Origin: Akkermansiaceae bacterium
GTDB lineage: Bacteria; Verrucomicrobiota; Verrucomicrobiia; Verrucomicrobiales; Akkermansiaceae
DNA length: 64,000 bases
Direction of reading: 5' to 3'
NCBI GenBank assembly: GCA_031425735.1
Contig: JANPJY010000002.1
Location: 5,692 to 69,691, forward strand
Positions 2,628 to 60,156 of this stretch are shown one piece after another. Made by a program: the position numbers and the translations under genes. The notes under the pieces were generated by a model. The model saw only the letters and a list, made by a program, of their open reading frames with translations. It did not search any database and was not told where the DNA came from. Numbering within the stretch: the first letter of the stretch is position 1; each line of letters begins with the position of its first letter.

Positions 2628-5600
2628 TCAAGGAGCAAAGACTCGCACACGATAGAATAAACTTCCGCTTTCTGGAGGATCGAGATCCTCCAGAGTGATC
2701 ATTTGGTCGCCTGGCAAGGTTGCAGTTTGTGTGATGTTCATCCATGTGGTCGGCGCTAACAAGTTGAATGTGCGCTCAAGATGATAGACACGGCCCGCAC
2801 GGGCGGAGACTGTGACCCGATTGAGGTTGGGCAGCACGAATGGCTCAAAGCTTGAGATTGAGAAGAAATCGGAGACGTCCAGTGGATTGGTGCCCGCCTC
2901 ATACTCCCATGAGTTGATCCTGCCATCACCGTCGGGGTCCTTGTCATTGCCGATAATGTTGGGATCTGTAATACCTTCCAGATAGGCTGTCTGCCATGCC
3001 AGGCGAGCATTGATATTGACCGAAACTGACTTGACCATCACCTGGCCATTCGCATCGACAATATAGACGGTGATAAGAGCAGATCCCTGTATTCCGGCAT
3101 TCGGAGTGAAGGTAAGGATGCGGTTTGTTCCGCTTCCCGTCACAATCAAATTCTGGTTCGGGATGAGCATATTGTTCGACGAAACGGCATAGATGCCGGA
3201 GTTCGAGGAGGACAGCGTGAGTGCCAAGGCCATCGGCACACCAGGCACCGCGACATCGGCTGCCGCGACCGTGACGGAGGGTGCCCCGGCCTGTCGGAAG
3301 CGAAAAGTTCGGGTAATGGCATTGTCGCGTAGAGCCGGGATATCCTGATAAGCTGCGCTGTCGAGTCGCACGTTAATTGTCAACTGCCAAGTGCCGCTTT
3401 CAGGTTCGTAATCGGCCTGCCAGGCATTGCCGCCGCCGGTTGTCGAGTCGAGGGCGACCCAGGCAGATCCTTTGTATTCCTCCAATAATGGGCTGCGATA
3501 ATCGGAAATCCCAGTCAGGGTGATGGGCACATAACCGATTCCACCGGTAATGCTGAATTCAGCGGTATTGTTCGATGCCTGAATTTGAACCGGATAGCTT
3601 TTTTCCAGTGAGCCGGTGGACACGTTCACCGACAGATCGTTTCCGAGAGCTTCGCGCATGACCATGCTGTGCTGGTTGCCATAATTCTGCATCGCGGTGC
3701 GAAAATGTTCGTCCTCTCCATAGTAGGCACTTGCAGCCTGCCCGAAGTAAACGCGCTCAATCTCGGCTTCGATGTAGTCACCCGCCTTAAGAGCGGTCAC
3801 ACCCGGAGGCGGAACCAGATCGACGCGAGAACCACTGGCCTTAAAATAGGGGCTCACATTGTCTATCCCATTGATACGCGCCTTCCAAGAGCGAATAATG
3901 AACCCCCGTTGAGCTCCGGTTTGGCTTTTGACATATGGGTCAACACGACAATTCAGGGTGGAAAACCAGGGGAGCTTGCCCGTCAGTTGAACCGGAGTGG
4001 AGGGCCCGCCGGTGGTCCATTGAGTGGTCGGGGTCAAATTCCCAGCGTAGCCGTATGCATGCTCCGAGCCGCCATTATAGTTGTAACTATCTGCAGCCAT
4101 CTGAAAGAAAACCATCCTGGTAAAAGAAGCGTCGCCTTTCACGTCATAGCGGATTTTGTGACGGCCCCGGACGTAGTCGTTCGAGCGATAGATACTGGTG
4201 CTGTATTTGAAATCGATGAGGGAGTTGTCGGTTTCCCCCGCATAGGTGACATCCGTCAGATTGGGGCCATAACGCTGATAGTGGCTGCGGATCCGTTTAT
4301 GGTAACGTCTTACATTCCCCGCATCTTGGTAACGCAAGAAATCGCAACCGCCGTAATTCCCCGTCCATTGTTTCTGGGCTCCGGTATCACTTAAAAGGAG
4401 AATTGGGCGTGAATCGGTACCGATGGCACCGGCCAGTGCCGAATCCGGATCGTAAACCAGATTTTCTCCCCAGGCGCCGATGGCGGATTCATCCCACTGG
4501 TGGTCGCCGCCCGTGCCGCCCCAACCAACCAAACAGAGCTGGGCATGAGTGACCGCCGGTACCCCAGCATAATTTGTCCGACAATGTATGCTTCGAATTG
4601 CAGTGTGGCGTTGGGCGGCACGATCAGCATGGTCAATGCGTTGAACCACCCACCTATCCAGCGGTCGGTGGTACTTGTGTGCCAGTTCTTCGAATGCTGA
4701 ACGGGAATACCCAGTGGATTCCCATCCATATCTCTCAGAAAACAGGAATTGCCGGCTCCGTTAGGAAAGTCTCCTTTGGTGAACGCAAGCCGTGCGATTT
4801 GAGGGGAATTCGTGGTGTTTGCCAGCGTCACCCGGGTGCGCTCAATTCGGTTCGAGTCAGTGCCACTCACATTGGTGCGTAGCGGAATTTCGAAATAGCC
4901 ATAATCTAATTTGTAACTCGGAGTGAGCGTGGCGGAGGTCGGAGCCGTCTGGGACGCCGTAACGGTCAGGCTGCGGCTTTCGATTTGGTCGGCCTCGGGA
5001 AGGGTTTGCGCCACCTTGTTGGATGGATAGATGACCAAACCAACAGAACGGTCCTGATCGGCATTCCATGTGCCCGCATCGGTTTCGATAGTGACACTGG
5101 AATTGGATGGATCGACGCTAATCGAACCACTTGCGGAACTCTTGAAGACCACATAGCCACTGCCATCGTCCGCAGAGAGAGCCTGCGCCACTCCGCGGCT
5201 CGAAAGTTCGTCGAAAATACTGTTCAGATTCAAGGTCATTTTCAACTTGCCCCCAGTGACAGATGCGGTGGGGACCACCCGACAAATGATGGAGATCCGG
5301 TCGGGCCAGGCAATGATCTCGTAGCCACTTCTAAGGGTATTAAGGGCGGGAGCTGAGTTGGTTTTAATTTTCACCCAGCGCCGTTGGTAAAATTTTCCGT
5401 TATTCAGCACTTGAGTGTTTTTCGTGTTGGTCGCATTCGGCTGAATCGAGACGGTTGAACCCGATGCGGTCAAGGTGGTCGTGAGACTGGACGACGGTGC
5501 AGAAGCTGGAAAACTTTCGCTCTGCGGCTGAACCAATGCCGTAGTTTCCGGAAGCCTTTCCTCCAGCGGGAATATCGAGGTGAGACTGAGTGAACCACTA

Positions 5601-29794: not shown

Positions 29795-31270
29795 TCAATC
29801 CTTCTTCTTCAACAGCGGGAAAAGCACGACGTCACGAATCGTCGGTGCGCCGGTGAGCATCATGACCAAGCGGTCAATCCCGATGCCGATGCCGCCTGCG
29901 GGCGGCATGCCGTGTTCGAGGGTTTCGATGAAATCGTAATCGACTTTCTGTTCTTCTTCGCCACCGGCTTGGTGTTCGAGGCGTTGTTTTTGAACGTCGG
30001 GATCGTTGAGTTCGGAGTAGCCGGGTGAAATTTCCTGGCCGTTGATGATGAGTTCGTAAACCTCGACGGTTCTGCCGCCGGGAGTGACTTTGGCGAGAGG
30101 CACCAGTTCGCTTGCGACGCGGGTGACGAAGCATGGATCAAAGGTGTGTTCCTCGACTTTTTTCTCAAAAACTTGTTGGATGACTTCGTAGTCCTCCATG
30201 TTCTCAGAAAGCTGCACGCCGATGGCTTCGCATTTCGCGCGGCGTTCGGCGGGGGTGATGTCGAAGAAATCATTGCCTGCGACTTCTTTGATGAGGTCGT
30301 GATAGCTTGCGCGTTTCCATGGACGTGTTAGATCGATGGTGCGGATTACGTTGTCCTCTTCGTCTTTGTGCTCGATCTTCAATCCACCGCAGAATTTCTC
30401 GGCGAGGTGGCAGGTCATTTCCTCGACCATGTTGGCCATTTCCTCGAAGTCGGAAAACGCCCAGTAAGCTTCGAGCATGGTGAACTCTGGGTTGTGGCGG
30501 CGGGAGATGCCTTCGTTGCGGAAGTTGCGATTCAGTTCGAACACTTTCGTGAAACCGCCGACAAGTAGCCGTTTGAGGAAAAGCTCCGGTGCGATGCGCA
30601 GAGTGAGCGGCATACCGAGCGCGTTGTGATGCGTCTCGAAAGGACGTGCAGCGGCGCCACCGGCGACGGATTGCAGCATCGGCGTTTCAACTTCGAGGAA
30701 GTCTCGTGCGTGCAGGAAATTGCGGATTTCCGCGATCATTTTCGAGCGAGTGATGAACAACGCGGCGCTGGCCGGGTTGCCGATGAGATCGAGGTGGCGC
30801 TTGCGGTATTTGGTTTCACGATCCGTGAGGCCGTGGAATTTATCCGGCATCGGGCGCAGGGATTTGGAAAGCACGGTGAAGGAGGAAACTTTAATGGTCG
30901 GCTCGCCGGTGCGGGTGAGGAAGGTTTCGCCGGAGACCCCGATCCAATCGCCGCGGTCGAGGCATTTCCAAATCGCTGCTTGGGTTTCATCGAGTTCCTT
31001 GATGCTGAGGTAGCCTTGGATGGAACCGTGCGCGTCGCCGATGCTGAAGAAAACCGATTTTCCCATGTCGCGCAGTGCAACGATGCGGCCCGCGCAGGTG
31101 ACTTGTTTTCCCTCAGAGAAATCTGCTTTAAGATCGGCAGGGGAGATCGTGGTCTCAAATCGGGCACCGTAGGGATCAACTTCCAGTTCACGGAGCTTGG
31201 CGAGTTTTTCACGGCGGACCGCAATAAGTTCTGCTTCGGTGGATTGGGGTGCTTGGGAAACTTCGCTCAT
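29795..31270 (-). CDS. lysS: Lysine--tRNA ligase (class II)
   Basis: Class II motifs (FRNEGIS.RHNPEFT, GGIGIGIDRLVM). Start moved to MSEVSQAPQ. Confidence 0.9.
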   Translation of the reverse strand: MSEVSQAPQSTEAELIAVRREKLAKLRELEVDPYGARFETTISPADLKADFSEGKQVTCAGRIVALRDMGKSVFFSIGDAHGSIQGYLSIKELDETQAAIWKCLDRGDWIGVSGETFLTRTGEPTIKVSSFTVLSKSLRPMPDKFHGLTDRETKYRKRHLDLIGNPASAALFITRSKMIAEIRNFLHARDFLEVETPMLQSVAGGAAARPFETHHNALGMPLTLRIAPELFLKRLLVGGFTKVFELNRNFRNEGISRRHNPEFTMLEAYWAFSDFEEMANMVEEMTCHLAEKFCGGLKIEHKDEEDNVIRTIDLTRPWKRASYHDLIKEVAGNDFFDITPAERRAKCEAIGVQLSENMEDYEVIQQVFEKKVEEHTFDPCFVTRVASELVPLAKVTPGGRTVEVYELIINGQEISPGYSELNDPDVQKQRLEHQAGGEEEQKVDYDFIETLEHGMPPAGGIGIGIDRLVMMLTGAPTIRDVVLFPLLKKKD

Positions 31271-31328
31271 GTGAGCGCTTGGAGTAGCGGACAGAGGCGA
31301 GCGGGGCAAGCAAAGAGACAGCTATTAC

Positions 31329-31476
31329 GCCGCAGGCTTTGGACTGCTGTGGTTATCCACAGCTTTCAGGGCAGATGTTCTAAATCGGGGTTGCGCCGTA
31401 TTCAATTTTCCACCCGATAAAACATCCCAACATTAAGAGCTGAGAAGAATCTCAGCAGTCCAAAGCCTCCGGCGGT
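31329..31476. repeat. MITE-like element with ~21-bp terminal inverted repeats
   Basis: The ends are gccgcaggctttggactgctg (31329-31349) and cagcagtccaaagcctccggcgg (31454-31476). A second copy lies at 56223..56406. Confidence 0.65.
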
Positions 31477-31506
31477 TCGCATTCTTGACAAGTGGGGTGG
31501 GGTGAT

Positions 31507-33676
<2,170 letters not shown>

Positions 33677-33680
33677 AGAA

Positions 33681-33709
33681 ATAGGTCTTATAGGACATAT
33701 ACGACCTAT
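33681..33709. repeat. 29-bp quasi-palindromic repeat, left flank of the four-helix-bundle gene
   Basis: Sequence ataggtcttataggacatatacgacctat with 7-bp terminal stems ataggtc/gacctat. It overlaps the start codon. Confidence 0.7.
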
Positions 33710-34289
33710 GTCATCTTCCTCCCCCGATGAGCCATCAGGCTTCCTTCCAAAAGGCGGCAACTACGAAGAACTCCGTTCTTACCAGAAATCTGAAATCATC
33801 TACGACCTCACCTTTCGATTTTGCGAGCGTGTCTTGAAGCGTAGTGATCGCACCATTGATCAAATGGTGCAGGCTGCGCGCTCGGGAAAACAGAACATCG
33901 TGGAAGGCAGTAAAGCCTCCAAGACATCCTCCGAGATGGAAATTAAGCTCACTAATGTGGCACGAGCCAGCCTCGAAGAACTCCTCAAAGACTATCAGGA
34001 TTTTTTAAGAGTCCGTGATATGGAAATGTGGGATAAGGACTCCAAAGAAGCTCTGTATGTTCGCAAACTCGGGAAAAAGACAAATGAGTCCTATGAGACC
34101 TATAGGACGTATATGGAAACGCGCCCTCCAGAAATTCTCGCGAACATCGCAATATGTCTTATCCACCAAGCTAACTACCTGTTAGATCAGCAGATCCGTC
34201 GTTTGGAGAATGATTTTCTAAAAAAAGGCGGACTTCGGGAAAATATGACTCGCGCAAGATTGAACTATCGAAAAAACCATAAAGAATAG
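33708..34289 (+). CDS. Four-helix-bundle protein (23S rRNA IVS / Avd family) with a C-terminal suffix domain
   Basis: YQKSEIIYDLTFRFCERVL, DQMVQAARSGKQNIVEG and LTNVARASLEEL are typical of the family as recalled. The C-terminal extension ends LENDFLKKGGLRE. Confidence 0.7.
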   Translation: MSSSSPDEPSGFLPKGGNYEELRSYQKSEIIYDLTFRFCERVLKRSDRTIDQMVQAARSGKQNIVEGSKASKTSSEMEIKLTNVARASLEELLKDYQDFLRVRDMEMWDKDSKEALYVRKLGKKTNESYETYRTYMETRPPEILANIAICLIHQANYLLDQQIRRLENDFLKKGGLRENMTRARLNYRKNHKE

Positions 34290-34314
34290 GTCATATAAGT
34301 CCTATACGACCTAT
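34286..34314. repeat. 29-bp quasi-palindromic repeat, right flank of the four-helix-bundle gene
   Basis: Sequence ataggtcatataagtcctatacgacctat. It matches the left copy at 25/29 in direct orientation and 26/29 in inverted orientation (hand count). It overlaps the stop codon. Confidence 0.7.
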
Positions 34315-34319
34315 TCCTG

Positions 34320-35561
34320 ATGAGCCCTAAAACCCACACTCCCCGCAAGATCGTTGTGATAGGCGGCGGCGCGGCTGGATTCTTCGCAGCGATCACTGCT
34401 GCCGAAGCCGATCCCTCGGCGGAGGTTACGGTTTATGAAAAGGGCAACGCGTTTCTCACCAAGGTGAAAATTTCCGGCGGCGGGCGCTGCAATGTCACGC
34501 ATGCTTGCTTCGATCCTGCGATGCTTTCGAAAAACTACCCTCGCGGTTCGCGCGAGCTGCGCGGAGCCTTTCATGAATGGCAGCCACAGGACACAGTTGC
34601 GTGGTTCGAAGCGCGCGGGGTGGAATTGAAAGCCGAAGCAGATGGCAGGATGTTTCCGGTGACCGATAGCTCGCAGACTATCATCGATTGTTTTATGAAA
34701 TCCGCCCGCGATGCGGGAGTGATTTTGAAAACCGGTATCGCGCTCCATGAACTGCAAGCCGATCCCGACGGAAAGTTTTCCCTGCATTTCAGCAATGGTG
34801 AAACGGTTAGATCTGACAAAGTATGCATCACCTCGGGATCGCTCAAAGCCTCTCCGCTCACTCGCGCCATCGAATCGCTCGGGCACAGCATCGAGCCGCT
34901 TGTTCCCTCGCTATTTGCTTTCAACATTCCGGATCAACGCCTCGATGAGCTCGCCGGACTTTCGGTGCAGGATGCGAGAGTGAAAATCGTTCCGAAAAGT
35001 CCGGTGCAGAGCGGTCCGGTGCTGATCACTCATCGCGGTCTCAGTGGTCCGGCGATCCTGCGTTTATCTGCATGGGAGGCGCGGCGCTTTGCCGAGCAGG
35101 ATTATGCGGTGGAAATTTCAATCAACTGGCTGGGAAAAACTTCAGCCGAAGAACTTCGCGAAACATTTTCTAACAACCGCGCGGAATCCGGAAAATCCCT
35201 AGTCAAAAACAAAGTGCCTGTGGGCTTGCCGCGTCGACTTTGGGAGCGTTTGCTCGAAAGCACCGCCATCGCGCCGGAAACCCAATGGTCGCAACTCACC
35301 AAAGATCGTGAAAACGTTTTGGTGAATCAGCTCACGGATTGCCGATTTCAGGTCAAAGGAAAGACCACCAACAAGGACGAATTCGTCACCTGTGGCGGTG
35401 TGAGGCTTAAAGAAATCGATTTCCGCAGAATGGAAAGTCGCATCGTCCCCGGCTTGCACTTCGCGGGCGAGTGCCTCGATATCGATGGCATCACCGGCGG
35501 TTTTAATTTCCAAGCCGCATGGACTGGCGGACACATCGCGGGATTGGCGATGGTGAGTTGA
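34320..35561 (+). CDS. HI0933/BaiN-family FAD-dependent oxidoreductase
   Basis: Dinucleotide-binding motif VVIGGGAAGFFAA, then GGGRCNVTH. The C-terminus is GGFNFQAAWTGG. Confidence 0.8.
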   Translation: MSPKTHTPRKIVVIGGGAAGFFAAITAAEADPSAEVTVYEKGNAFLTKVKISGGGRCNVTHACFDPAMLSKNYPRGSRELRGAFHEWQPQDTVAWFEARGVELKAEADGRMFPVTDSSQTIIDCFMKSARDAGVILKTGIALHELQADPDGKFSLHFSNGETVRSDKVCITSGSLKASPLTRAIESLGHSIEPLVPSLFAFNIPDQRLDELAGLSVQDARVKIVPKSPVQSGPVLITHRGLSGPAILRLSAWEARRFAEQDYAVEISINWLGKTSAEELRETFSNNRAESGKSLVKNKVPVGLPRRLWERLLESTAIAPETQWSQLTKDRENVLVNQLTDCRFQVKGKTTNKDEFVTCGGVRLKEIDFRRMESRIVPGLHFAGECLDIDGITGGFNFQAAWTGGHIAGLAMVS

Positions 35562-35575
35562 TGCTGGTGATTTTT

Positions 35576-35674
35576 AACCACGGATTGCACGGAATACACG
35601 GAGTGAAGATTACAATTAAAGTAGTTGGTCAGTTTTATGTCATCCATTCTGTGTACTCCGTGCATTCCGTGGTT
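35576..35674. repeat. Palindromic AACCACG-type intergenic element
   Basis: The arms aaccacggattgcacgga (35576-35593) and tccgtgcattccgtggtt (35657-35674) are 17/18 complementary. The element starts 15 nt after the upstream gene's stop. Confidence 0.65.
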
Positions 35675-35743
35675 TAATTTAGCTACTTCCGCCCATTCTT
35701 ATCCCTTGTGCCTGACCGCGAGTTGGACGCAGGATGAGTTCGC

Positions 35744-36937
35744 ATGAATTCCTATTTTGAAAAGCTTGGCCAGACGGTTTTGGAACGGTGGCGGGAGCAG
35801 AATTTCTCGCTCGAAGTTTTCCCTGAACTGACCCGCATCGCGATCGACGAGGCTCCGCCATCGGAAAACGTCGATATCGAGGAAATGATCCATGAGTTCC
35901 TTTTCAATGACGAACAACCTTTTCAAGGCGAATCCGGCTTCGGTCAGCCTGAGTTAATCGCATTCAACGATCCGCGGTTTTACATTCAGATCCTGTTCTG
36001 GCTGGAGGGGACGACGGAAATCCATCAGCACGAATTTTCCGGGGCATTCCATGTGATGCAAGGTTCCAGCGTGCATTCGGAATTCGATTTCGTGGGTGCC
36101 CGTTCCATCACTCCACACATTCGCATCGGCGATCTCCGCGTGAAGCGGATCGAATTGTTAGAAACCGGACGCACGGTTCCCATCACCTCCGGACGGGAAT
36201 GCATTCACTCGCTTTTTCACCTCGATACTCCATCCATCACCGTGGTGATCCGCACCCATCATGATCCCGGCACGGGACCGCAATACAATTACCTGCCGCC
36301 GCACATTGCGATCAATCCGCTAAACGCGGATTCTCTAACAGCTCGTCGTAAACAACTGCTCGACGTGCTGGAAACCATCGACGATTCGAATTACGCACCT
36401 TATGTGAATGAAATGATTGGTAGTTTGGATTTCGAGCGCGGATTCAACATGCTTCGCCACGCCATGCCGCGCCTGAAAGACCTTGATGAATGGGATGAGG
36501 CTTTGGCGACGTTTCAAAACAAACACGGTGAACTCGCTTTGGGTGTGCCCGACACTCTGGCGGAATGTCTCCGTCGCGAAACGATCTCCCAGATGCGTCA
36601 TTTCATCGTCAATCCAGAGCATCGCTTTTTCCTCGCGCTACTCATGAACGTGCAGAATCGGACCGATATTCTGGCGCTCGTCACTCAGCGGTTTCCTGGT
36701 TCATCACCCATCGACACCATCCTCGGCTGGGCGGAAGAGCTGTTGGAGCCTAACGATTTCGGGGTCACTCTTTTGGATGCCGCTTTTCCTGAAACTCTCG
36801 ATGTCGAGATTGATGAGCAGTACCAGTTGTTCATCATCGCGCTGAAATATGCTCTGGAAGAGAATACGGATGATGAAGAGTTCTTGGAGATACAAGCCGC
36901 ACTGAAGGCTTCCTGCTTACGGCCTTTGTTTTCGTAG
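35744..36937 (+). CDS. Hypothetical protein with a cupin-like His motif
   Basis: 397-aa ORF. EIHQHEFSGAFHVMQGSSVH resembles a cupin metal-binding motif. The C-terminal half is helical and acidic. Confidence 0.55.
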   Translation: MNSYFEKLGQTVLERWREQNFSLEVFPELTRIAIDEAPPSENVDIEEMIHEFLFNDEQPFQGESGFGQPELIAFNDPRFYIQILFWLEGTTEIHQHEFSGAFHVMQGSSVHSEFDFVGARSITPHIRIGDLRVKRIELLETGRTVPITSGRECIHSLFHLDTPSITVVIRTHHDPGTGPQYNYLPPHIAINPLNADSLTARRKQLLDVLETIDDSNYAPYVNEMIGSLDFERGFNMLRHAMPRLKDLDEWDEALATFQNKHGELALGVPDTLAECLRRETISQMRHFIVNPEHRFFLALLMNVQNRTDILALVTQRFPGSSPIDTILGWAEELLEPNDFGVTLLDAAFPETLDVEIDEQYQLFIIALKYALEENTDDEEFLEIQAALKASCLRPLFS

Positions 36938-59457: not shown

Positions 59458-59472
59458 TTGTTAGCGCCTACT

Positions 59473-59541
59473 GGAGAGCCGCGCCTCCGGCCGGCTTCTT
59501 CCGTGATAGCAAAAATGCCGGCCAGAGACCGACTCTCCAAT
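59473..59541. repeat. Two REP-like copies upstream of the RAYT gene
   Basis: ggagagccgcgcctccggccggctt (59473-59497) is the reverse complement, at 24/25, of the downstream copy. gccggccagagaccgactctccaat (59517-59541) is in direct orientation. Confidence 0.65.
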
Positions 59542-59550
59542 CCCCCCCTT

Positions 59551-60156
59551 ATGCCCGAATTCTTTCATCCTGATCTACCCACAAATGTAAAAGTTCATAA
59601 TCTGCCTCACTGGCAACAAGGTGATGCATGGCTTTTTCTCACATGGCGGCTAGCTGACTCGTTACCGCTAATTAAAATTAGAGAATGGCAGCACCAAAGA
59701 GAGATTTTTTTCAAATTTTATCCCGAACCGTGGACCGATTATGTTTTTAAAGAGTATCGAAAACAGTTCACTGATGAGATTGAAGAGTGGTTGGATCGCG
59801 GTATTGGCGAGTGTCATTTGAAGTATCGTGAGGTTCGAGAAATCGTTTCTTCGGCTTTGTTGCATTTCGATGGTGAGCGCTATGACCTGAATTGTTTTGT
59901 GATCATGCCAAATCATGTTCATCTGCTGCTTCGTCCCTTGGAGCCTCATAAACTTTCCGACATCGTTAAAACCATGAAGAGCTTCAGTGCTCGTGAGGTG
60001 AACAAAATTTTAAAACGGGAAGGCTCATTGTGGCAGAGAGACTATTATGATCGGTTGATCCGATCAGCTAAGCAATTTTCGTGGGTGAGAAATTATATTG
60101 AGAAGAACCCTAAGAATTTTCATCCGGATACATTCACGCTTTATATGAAGCCATGA
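59551..60156 (+). mobile_element. REP-associated tyrosine transposase (RAYT, IS200/IS605 Y1 family)
   Basis: The HUH motif region is FVIMPNHVHLLLRP and the catalytic Tyr region is LWQRDYYDRLIR. The gene is flanked by REP hairpins. Confidence 0.8.

Follow-up and report, generated by a model that had tools for sequence, protein, structure and literature searches.

Why should a gene begin and end inside two copies of nearly the same short repeat? In the 64,000-nucleotide stretch of Akkermansiaceae bacterium DNA analyzed here (hereafter the window; forward strand of contig JANPJY010000002.1, assembly GCA_031425735.1), a gene encoding a 193-aa protein of the S23p/Avd superfamily with a four-helix-bundle (4HB) suffix domain (33708..34289, + strand) fills most of the space between thiC and a gene for an HI0933-like flavoprotein, with its start codon inside one 29-mer and its stop codon inside another. 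The original prediction, made from the sequence, described this arrangement as a cassette bounded by repeats and hinted at mobility. We found that gene and repeats are inherited together, that they recur together in many unrelated neighborhoods and phyla, and that they are present or absent together at the 3' end of thiC. The explanation we favor, with about even confidence, is that a widespread, portable and self-contained module, consisting of the 4HB-suffix gene and its own arrays of 9-bp cis repeats, has long resided at this locus.

Structure of the 29-mers

All features of the predicted layout were recovered: an ORF at 33708-34289 between thiC and the flavoprotein gene, with its ATG and TAG inside the 29-mers. 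The left 29-mer (ATAGGTCTTATAGGACATATACGACCTAT, 33681-33709) begins after a spacing of 4 nt from the thiC stop codon and holds the ATG of the 4HB gene, and the right 29-mer (ATAGGTCATATAAGTCCTATACGACCTAT, 34286-34314), the first unit of which gives the TAG stop, ends 5 nt from the flavoprotein ATG. Both are quasi-palindromic and consist of three tandem 9-bp units with the consensus ATAGGNCNT, those of the left 29-mer being ATAGGTCTT/ATAGGACAT/ATACGACCT plus AT. A recount reproduced the previously reported matches between the two, 25/29 in direct and 26/29 in inverted orientation, and the inverted repeat extends to 33 nt with 88% complementarity (33677-33709 / 34286-34318). Each 29-mer is also self-complementary at 24/29 positions, which bears out the palindromy that had been predicted; the simple terminal hairpins of that prediction are replaced by arrays of a 9-bp unit.

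These arrays stand out from the surrounding DNA. No further copy of the 29-mer with up to three mismatches was found in the window (0 expected, 100 shuffles), and a period scan of the whole window returned five period-9 arrays against zero or one for each of the periods 6-8 and 10-12. The 4HB gene accounts for three of them, namely the left array, the right array, and an internal nonamer-like stretch on the + strand that encodes ESYETYRTYM (34084-34113; given as about 34088-34117 in the original prediction). The internal resemblance is real, and its peptide belongs to a motif conserved in the family, (S/T)YETYR(T/E)(Y/F); an independent third repeat was rejected for this clade because the stretch encodes that conserved motif. 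In another 4HB clade (PPHGGYRELQSY...GGFTEKLYR) the same internal position is occupied by a perfect array of the 29-mer pattern, read in frame as RSYxTYxTY, with a copy number that varies from three to five units (five in locus L122), and the internal resemblance is therefore not accidental at the level of the family.

Recurrence of gene and arrays across phyla

Relatives of the 4HB protein are abundant. A word-indexed protein search gave at least 8000 hits, the best 120 of which were 76-96% identical, an exhaustive search gave 396 clusters (50% identity) at E <= 1e-30, and a scan of one genome per species gave more than 560 relatives, the best 80 of which (loci L007-L086) were 63-96% identical. 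The genomes carrying these best 80 are labeled Verrucomicrobiota, Planctomycetota, Kiritimatiellota, Desulfuromonadales/Geobacter, Nitrospirota, Thermodesulfovibrionales, Acidobacteriota, Chloroflexota, Bacteroidota, Chlorobiales, Zetaproteobacteria, Gammaproteobacteria and Paceibacterota. The branch is large and highly conserved, with 65-77% amino-acid identity across phyla.

The arrays travel with the gene. Inspection of the flanks of all loci showed 9-bp-unit arrays beside it in almost every lineage. Using a simple motif count that required at least three unit motifs within 200 bp of a gene end, arrays were found beside the 4HB gene in 68 of 79 genome loci, at both ends in 30, upstream only in 29 and downstream only in 9, while the background of the unit motif in the same loci was about 0-0.3 hits per 420 bp, the exceptions being L006, L018 and L061 with 0.7-1.2. 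Several extra arrays lie near the gene in L006, L025 and L061. Gene and arrays together are spread over more than 10 phyla in these 79 loci, and their recurrence in so many unrelated contexts upholds, at the level of the family, the idea of a repeat-bounded cassette. Longer arrays form hairpins in which both arms are tandem units in opposite orientation, the 29-mer being the shortest form, and the construction of gene ends from repeat units also recurs: an array unit provides the TAG stop in 17 of 82 loci, and in 14 the ATG is fused to the last unit. In a replicon of Prevotella, arrays were found only at the 4HB gene.

The type of unit follows the clade of the protein. At least four unit types were distinguished: ATAGGAC-like, as in the window, ATGGGAA-like, TAGGAAnnC and ATTGAC. 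Proteins with an N-terminal G[NH]Y have ATAGGAC-type units in 43 of 51 loci, and of the 21 loci with GDY proteins 16 have ATGGGAA-type units and none has the ATAGGAC type. TAGGAAnnC units accompany a 43%-identical homologue in Prevotella nigrescens, and a hairpin of ATTGAC 9-bp units precedes a second 4HB-suffix paralogue in L030 (7014-7800), which is 37% identical and carries a fused C4 zinc ribbon of the topoisomerase type (Zn_ribbon_Top1, E 7e-13). Rfam holds no family for the nonamer arrays, and literature searches on the family names and the repeat sequence returned no description of the arrays or of their link to the gene.

The genes next to the module vary widely. The upstream neighbor is thiC in 10 of 73 loci and hsdM in 9, the downstream neighbor is hsdS in 8 of 74 and the HI0933 flavoprotein gene in 5, and the remaining neighbors are singletons with diverse housekeeping functions, such as AcrB, GroEL, DNA ligase, PGI and alanine racemase. 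No transposase, integrase or reverse transcriptase appears among the 25 commonest families in the immediate-neighbor summaries of 80 homologous loci. A single 4HB copy per locus was the rule in 86 loci, one distant paralogue excepted, and a tandem-cassette, integron-like organization was rejected on this ground.

Two of the recurrent contexts are defense operons. In eight loci (L022, L023, L028, L032, L051, L059, L073 and L075, at about 5000-5600 in each) the 4HB gene lies between hsdM and hsdS of a type I restriction-modification operon; the array overlaps the hsdM stop, the stop of the 4HB gene overlaps the hsdS start (ATGA), there is no 3' arm, and the proteins share a C-terminal tail, ...ARDQQRxxxGK. 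A separate 4HB-suffix clade is found directly upstream of cas4 in the metagenome loci L104, L131 and L166 (Pfam Cas_Cas4, E 1.6e-25 in L166, the locus tested). The frequent placement in type I restriction-modification and CRISPR-cas operons hints at a link to the regulation of defense systems. In L062 (26-1020) the 4HB gene is interrupted or chimeric, with an hsdS-like start (MKRGW) followed by the second half of a 4HB gene, which may reflect recombination between copies or a mis-assembly.

History of the copy downstream of thiC

An intact module at the 3' end of thiC was found in 12 verrucomicrobial loci, including the window. In five of these (L002, L004, L007, L008 and L011) the order thiC-4HB-flavoprotein is kept together with both 29-mers, and in six others (L006, L010, L012, L017, L026 and L027) the thiC-4HB pair is followed by other genes. 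A neighbor-joining tree, calculated without support values, places the thiC-linked copies in one verrucomicrobial clade, which also contains copies that now lie beside a sulfatase (L013), a DUF3686 ATPase (L014) and a BNR protein (L019). The dN/dS of the 4HB gene is 0.05-0.07, similar to that of its neighbors, with dS to relatives from 0.4 to >1; the gene is somewhat mosaic, being more diverged than its flanks in L004 and L011. The synteny with both 29-mers, the single thiC clade and the dS values therefore argue for an old vertical resident and against a recent insertion, and these sequence comparisons show that the copy is under purifying selection and has been vertically inherited at this site within Verrucomicrobiota.

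The repeats have been kept as well. The left 29-mer is 86-97% identical and the right one 83-100% identical in the five closest relatives, and both fall to 72-86% in L010/L012. In the closest relatives, at dS of 0.4-0.8, the 29-mers are thus 83-100% identical compared with 82-91% for the flanking coding DNA, and as mostly non-coding sequences that are conserved as much as or more than coding DNA, they are under selection.

A survey of the thiC 3' flank in relatives with 85-91% ThiC identity showed sites that lack the module, truncated copies, and sites that hold other mobile or defense genes; the original prediction had suggested a search for empty sites. Neither the 4HB gene nor the arrays are present in Roseimicrobium gellanilyticum (L214), where DUF4238 lies 3' of thiC; in Phragmitibacter flavus (L215), which has a gene of the poly(A)-polymerase family and NACHT; in L216 (5083-5823), where a Y1 transposase with REP-like hairpins takes the position; or in L217 (5135-7264), which has STM3845 and a reverse transcriptase, a pair that looks retron-like. 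L217 and the cassette-bearing L006 have 94.5% ThiC identity and upstream synteny, and their homology ends about 10 nt before the thiC stop codon. Luteolibacter sp. LG18 (L213, 5498-7732) has a 7-unit array, a 3-unit array and a 4HB copy that breaks off after about 118 codons, beyond which lie TIR-domain genes, and another truncated thiC-linked copy was found in the metagenome locus L112. The thiC 3' end is a variable hotspot in Verrucomicrobiales, and since gene and repeats are jointly present or absent there, they have been gained or lost together. A search for empty sites based on the flavoprotein was uninformative because relatives at 74-81% identity are not beside thiC.

For the mobility that had been hinted at, these results support portability at the level of the family and speak against a recent insertion of this copy, and neither an enzyme nor a mechanism of mobility emerged from them. 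The ORFs scanned between about 19 and 48 kb of the window, which lie within about 14 kb of the 4HB gene, included neither a reverse transcriptase nor a recombinase, in agreement with what had been noted earlier. Among the ~44 larger ORFs scanned across the window there was no reverse transcriptase (RVT family), and no integrase was found among the window ORFs scanned.

Solo repeats away from the gene

The repeats are not confined to 4HB genes. A scan of metagenomes with the pattern ATAGGTCNTATANGNCNTATANGACCTAT matched at least 120 stretches and returned 80 loci, in 68 of which a near-perfect solo 29-mer was present without a 4HB gene in the locus. The pattern was inside a 4HB gene in 10 of the 80 loci, one of which (L113) has a further copy just downstream of the gene; it also lies upstream of the truncated copy in L112 and at the start of a gene fragment in L124. 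Most solo 29-mers sit exactly between a stop codon and the next start, and no other gene family recurs beside them in the 80 loci.

In eight of the metagenome loci solo 29-mers lie in frame inside adenylation domains of non-ribosomal peptide synthetases (NRPS). Near-perfect copies of ATAGGTCC/ATAGGACC were found in L094 (2757-2785), L109 (540-568), L117 (8513-8541) and L120 (1740-1768), with others at 3219 and 6324 in L129 and at 2727 and 12117 in L164. They lie between ...ELTAEKF and YKTGDLARW, encode YRSYKTYRTY-like loops, and are far better conserved than the surrounding codons.

The protein, RNA folding and predicted expression

The family assignment in the original prediction, to the Avd and 23S intervening-sequence proteins, was borne out by profile matches. 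The suffix domain (TIGR04258, "four helix bundle suffix domain") scores 85.3 bits against a cutoff of 40, with residues 141-189 covering profile positions 1-49 of 49, and TIGR02436 ("four helix bundle protein", NCBIfam) scores 26.6 against 24. Pfam PF05635 (23S rRNA-intervening sequence protein) stays below its cutoff here, at 25 against 33.8; many close homologues carry a precomputed PF05635 hit. An AlphaFold2 model (pLDDT 78.7) predicts long helices at residues 23-42, 48-70, 75-102 and 141-173, a helical insert at 113-138 and a C-terminal helix. Its highest-probability Foldseek matches are two structures of the S23p family, 2gsc and 2rld, and chain B of the ribonucleoprotein of a diversity-generating retroelement (DGR), 8ub7 (122 residues), which we take to be Avd; the E-values are weak (0.08-0.8), and 2gsc_B has a probability of 1.0 and a TM-score by target of 0.71. 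The predicted fold thus resembles the four-helix bundle of solved S23p/Avd structures, at weak Foldseek E-values. PADLOC and PHROGs gave no meaningful match for the protein, a sequence search of the PDB gave nothing below E = 0.6, and profile scans recognized no nuclease or transposase motif or domain and no Y1_Tnp match.

Each 29-mer folds to a 12-bp hairpin, the left one at -13.3 kcal/mol (z -3.7) and the right one at -14 kcal/mol (z -5.0), and the internal stretch forms a hairpin of -12.3 kcal/mol. When 33665-34330 is folded as a whole, both the minimum-free-energy and the centroid structures pair the two flanks in a terminal stem of about 40 bp (-201.5 kcal/mol, z -4.3). The variable positions of the 29-mers are unit positions 4, 6 and 8, and it is the 9-bp unit, not base pairing, that conservation tracks.

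Between thiC and the 4HB gene the plus strand showed neither a sigma-70-like promoter nor a terminator, the hairpins being without plus-strand U-tracts, and inspection of the sequence revealed no Shine-Dalgarno sequence before the ATG of either the 4HB or the flavoprotein gene. The upstream host gene, thiC (31619..33676, + strand; Pfam ThiC_Rad_SAM, E 1.8e-183), is preceded by a thiamine pyrophosphate (TPP) riboswitch (31515..31628, + strand; Rfam RF00059, 68.8 bits against a gathering score of 54.3). The mechanical ORF start at 31619 overlaps the riboswitch, and the true thiC start is probably downstream of it. The riboswitch probably controls the transcript that bears the 4HB module. The downstream host gene encodes the HI0933-like flavoprotein (34320..35561, + strand; Pfam HI0933_like, E 5.5e-71).

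A proposed portable module and its alternatives

The reading of the locus as a long-resident copy of a portable module would work as follows. Apparently without a promoter or Shine-Dalgarno sequence of its own, the module would ride its host operon, here the TPP-riboswitch-controlled thiC transcript. Its arrays are predicted to be cis binding or structural sites for the encoded protein. Judged from its homologues S23p and Avd, this protein is likely a ring-forming, nucleic-acid-binding oligomer, possibly with one 9-bp unit per protein subunit. The hairpins would bury the ATG of the module and abut that of the next gene, so translation of both might depend on ribosomes arriving from upstream, and the outcome would be translational coupling and autoregulation with limited polar damage to the host operon.

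Several observations weigh against this reading. As the solo 29-mers show, arrays can live apart from the gene, and 11 of the 79 homologue loci are without arrays while 38 have them on one side. The co-variation of unit type and protein clade can also come from joint descent of the gene and its flanks. Folding of sense and antisense strands showed no sense-strand stability bias, so that a role at the RNA level is not favored over one at the DNA level, and no compensatory changes were seen at the variable 29-mer positions, in the local hairpins or in the left-right duplex, among the closest relatives, as judged by eye and not by a formal pair count. A search for transcriptomes of the locus yielded only DNA metagenomes and low-share metatranscriptome contigs. 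No recombinase was seen traveling with the module in the loci examined, and the collections searched pointed to no vehicle for horizontal movement: no close relative of the module was found in the phage and viral collections (viral_contigs and the phage collection), and it is nearly absent from plasmids, with one distant hit among 72,556 records. The taxon labels of the metagenome-assembled genomes (bins) may be partly wrong.

An extension of the portable-module reading, which we put forward tentatively and consider less likely than not, is that 4HB-suffix proteins are sequence-specific partners of a previously undescribed group of nonamer-array palindromes, each clade recognizing, and perhaps generating or spreading, its own unit type, with repeats that mark the ends of the gene, lie in frame within it, and seed solo copies in intergenic regions and in other genes such as NRPS. 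If this were true, S23p/Avd-like bundles would gain a general function as readers of tandem repeats, and ORF-bearing rRNA intervening sequences would be one special landing site of such modules.

Two alternatives, the main competitors of the portable module, give the palindromes a different role. Processing like that of an rRNA intervening sequence (IVS), in which the flanks would pair within the thiC polycistron as a duplex of about 40 bp and a predicted RNase III cut would excise or activate the ORF RNA, is partly compatible with the portable module and is suggested by the long terminal stem in both folds, the 33-nt inverted repeat at 88% and the similar architecture of the Coxiella IVS (PMC4990558). 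We consider it unlikely, however, because the arrays of many homologues are one-sided (29 of 79 upstream only, 9 downstream only), the hsdM/hsdS-linked copies overlap the hsdS start and have no 3' arm, the arms show neither covariation by eye nor a sense-strand stability bias, and conservation follows the 9-bp unit instead of pairing; solo 29-mers, moreover, cannot form such a long stem. It is quite improbable, in our judgment, that the palindromes are instead a dispersed family resembling repetitive extragenic palindromes and their RAYT transposases (REP/RAYT), with the 4HB protein, its gene bordered by its own repeat type, as the cognate trans factor that maintains or spreads them, in-frame insertions included. 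The solo copies of 68 out of 80 metagenome loci, which lie mostly between a stop and the next start codon and, in eight loci, in frame in NRPS, fit that idea, as do the variable copy number of the internal in-frame array (5 units in L122), the match between unit type and protein clade, and the extra arrays nearby in L006, L025 and L061. Yet the protein has no recognizable nuclease or transposase motif or domain, and in most genomes, the window and the Prevotella replicon included, the arrays occur only at the gene.

We regard as very improbable, and already largely refuted, the notion that the thiC operon simply has a conserved accessory gene here, flanked by hairpins that act as generic intergenic stabilizers or terminators, with nothing portable and no specific link between gene and repeats. 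The synteny of thiC and the 4HB gene in 12 verrucomicrobial loci, the purifying selection and the lack of a mobility gene are what it would lead one to expect, but the same gene and the same kind of arrays are found in unrelated contexts and phyla by the dozen, the arrays are many times denser at the gene than in neighboring DNA, start and stop codons are recurrently built into the units, each protein clade tends to have its own unit type, the 3' end of thiC is empty or otherwise occupied in relatives, and plus-strand U-tracts are absent. There is equally little to recommend a remnant or satellite of a DGR, in which an Avd gene stands without a reverse transcriptase, or a cassette of the integron type with attC-like sites. 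Avd is a relative in both structure and sequence (PMC10053308), and imperfect palindromes do flank a promoterless ORF; against this, no reverse transcriptase was found among the ~44 larger window ORFs scanned or among the 25 commonest families of the neighbor summaries, no template/variable repeat pair listed for 33400-34600 exceeded 33 nt, and neither an integrase, among the ORFs scanned, nor, in 86 loci, tandem cassettes were seen.

Comparison with known systems

For more than 30 years, to our knowledge, neither a function nor an origin has been known for S23p/PF05635 proteins and the rRNA intervening sequences in which they are encoded; Avd is the sole member with a known role. Avd works as an oligomer bound to nucleic acid and to reverse transcriptase. 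PF05635 has been linked to Avd (PMC10053308), and the Xanthomonas S23p structure, as cited in PMC4990558, is a homopentameric toroid of four-helix bundles.

Among known systems the module comes nearest to the ORF-bearing 23S rRNA IVS of Coxiella burnetii and Leptospira. Like the module, it has an ORF of the same four-helix-bundle superfamily, inverted repeats at the ends that are predicted to pair in a long stem around this ORF, short tandem repeats right before the ATG, no promoter or good Shine-Dalgarno sequence of its own, and a patchy distribution suggesting selfish behavior (PMC4990558). In Coxiella burnetii the S23p ORF is enclosed by a 28-bp terminal stem cut by RNase III and preceded by tandem heptamers (PMC4990558). 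The present module, in contrast, lies between thiC and a flavoprotein gene, with no rRNA match in 31000-36000; its protein adds the 49-aa suffix domain and a Tyr-rich insert; its arrays, quasi-palindromic and built of 9-bp units, lie on both sides of the ORF and inside it; and strong purifying selection acts on its ORF, while that of Coxiella is in decay. What is new is an S23p module that resembles an IVS, lies outside rRNA and has nonamer arrays that co-vary with the protein, the gene family itself being already named in NCBIfam.

Other systems share fewer features with the module. The Avd of DGRs is a homologous four-helix bundle, chain B of 8ub7 being among the highest-probability Foldseek matches, but no reverse transcriptase, template/variable repeats or target gene was found here or beside the homologues examined. 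REP/RAYT systems likewise have a low-copy gene flanked by palindromes of a type that is also dispersed as solo copies, with repeat type matched to protein lineage; this protein, however, is not an HUH/Y1 enzyme, dispersed copies were not seen near the gene in most genomes sampled, and the units are 9-bp tandem repeats. Rickettsia palindromic elements are small palindromes tolerated in frame in genes, as the nonamer arrays are in NRPS adenylation domains and the 4HB gene, but the repeats here are 27-45 bp and not ~100-150 bp, have a 9-bp periodicity and are tied to one gene family. Integron cassettes differ by their integrase, none of which was found among the ORFs scanned, and by their tandem arrangement. 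A functional analogy can be drawn to TRAP and the recognition of tandem RNA triplets by ring oligomers, in that a proposed ring oligomer would read evenly spaced tandem repeats near a start codon and control translation; there is no homology between the two, and in this case the period is 9 nt, the arrays are palindromic and the binding is a prediction.

The arrays supply a concrete ligand hypothesis for a large, conserved branch of the S23p family, and a defined unit of mobility with natural sites of presence and absence is now available. Cultured carriers include Prevotella nigrescens, whose distant homologue is intact, and Luteolibacter sp. LG18, whose thiC-linked copy is truncated. The NRPS and 4HB genes show that very small palindromic repeats are able to sit in frame in coding sequences.

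Other features of the window

The sole transposase-like gene among the ~44 larger window ORFs is a Y1_Tnp (IS200/RAYT-like) homologue at 59458-60156 (+ strand), which is placed tightly between a DUF3500 gene and a rhomboid gene and has GCCGGC-type hairpins at both ends that are unrelated to the nonamer arrays.

Directly 3' of the flavoprotein gene there is a 93-nt hairpin (35578-35670; -48.5 kcal/mol, z -9.1) with 28-nt arms made of three 9-bp units in tandem (CACGGATTG/CACGGAATA/CACGGAGTG, with their inverse). It is missing from the same site in the close relatives L004 and L007, and L002 and L008 have other tandem-repeat hairpins there, with 10-bp units such as CGCAGATGAA. Hairpins with tandem-repeat arms after the flavoprotein gene thus form a class with fast turnover, and their architecture is that of the long arrays that flank 4HB genes.

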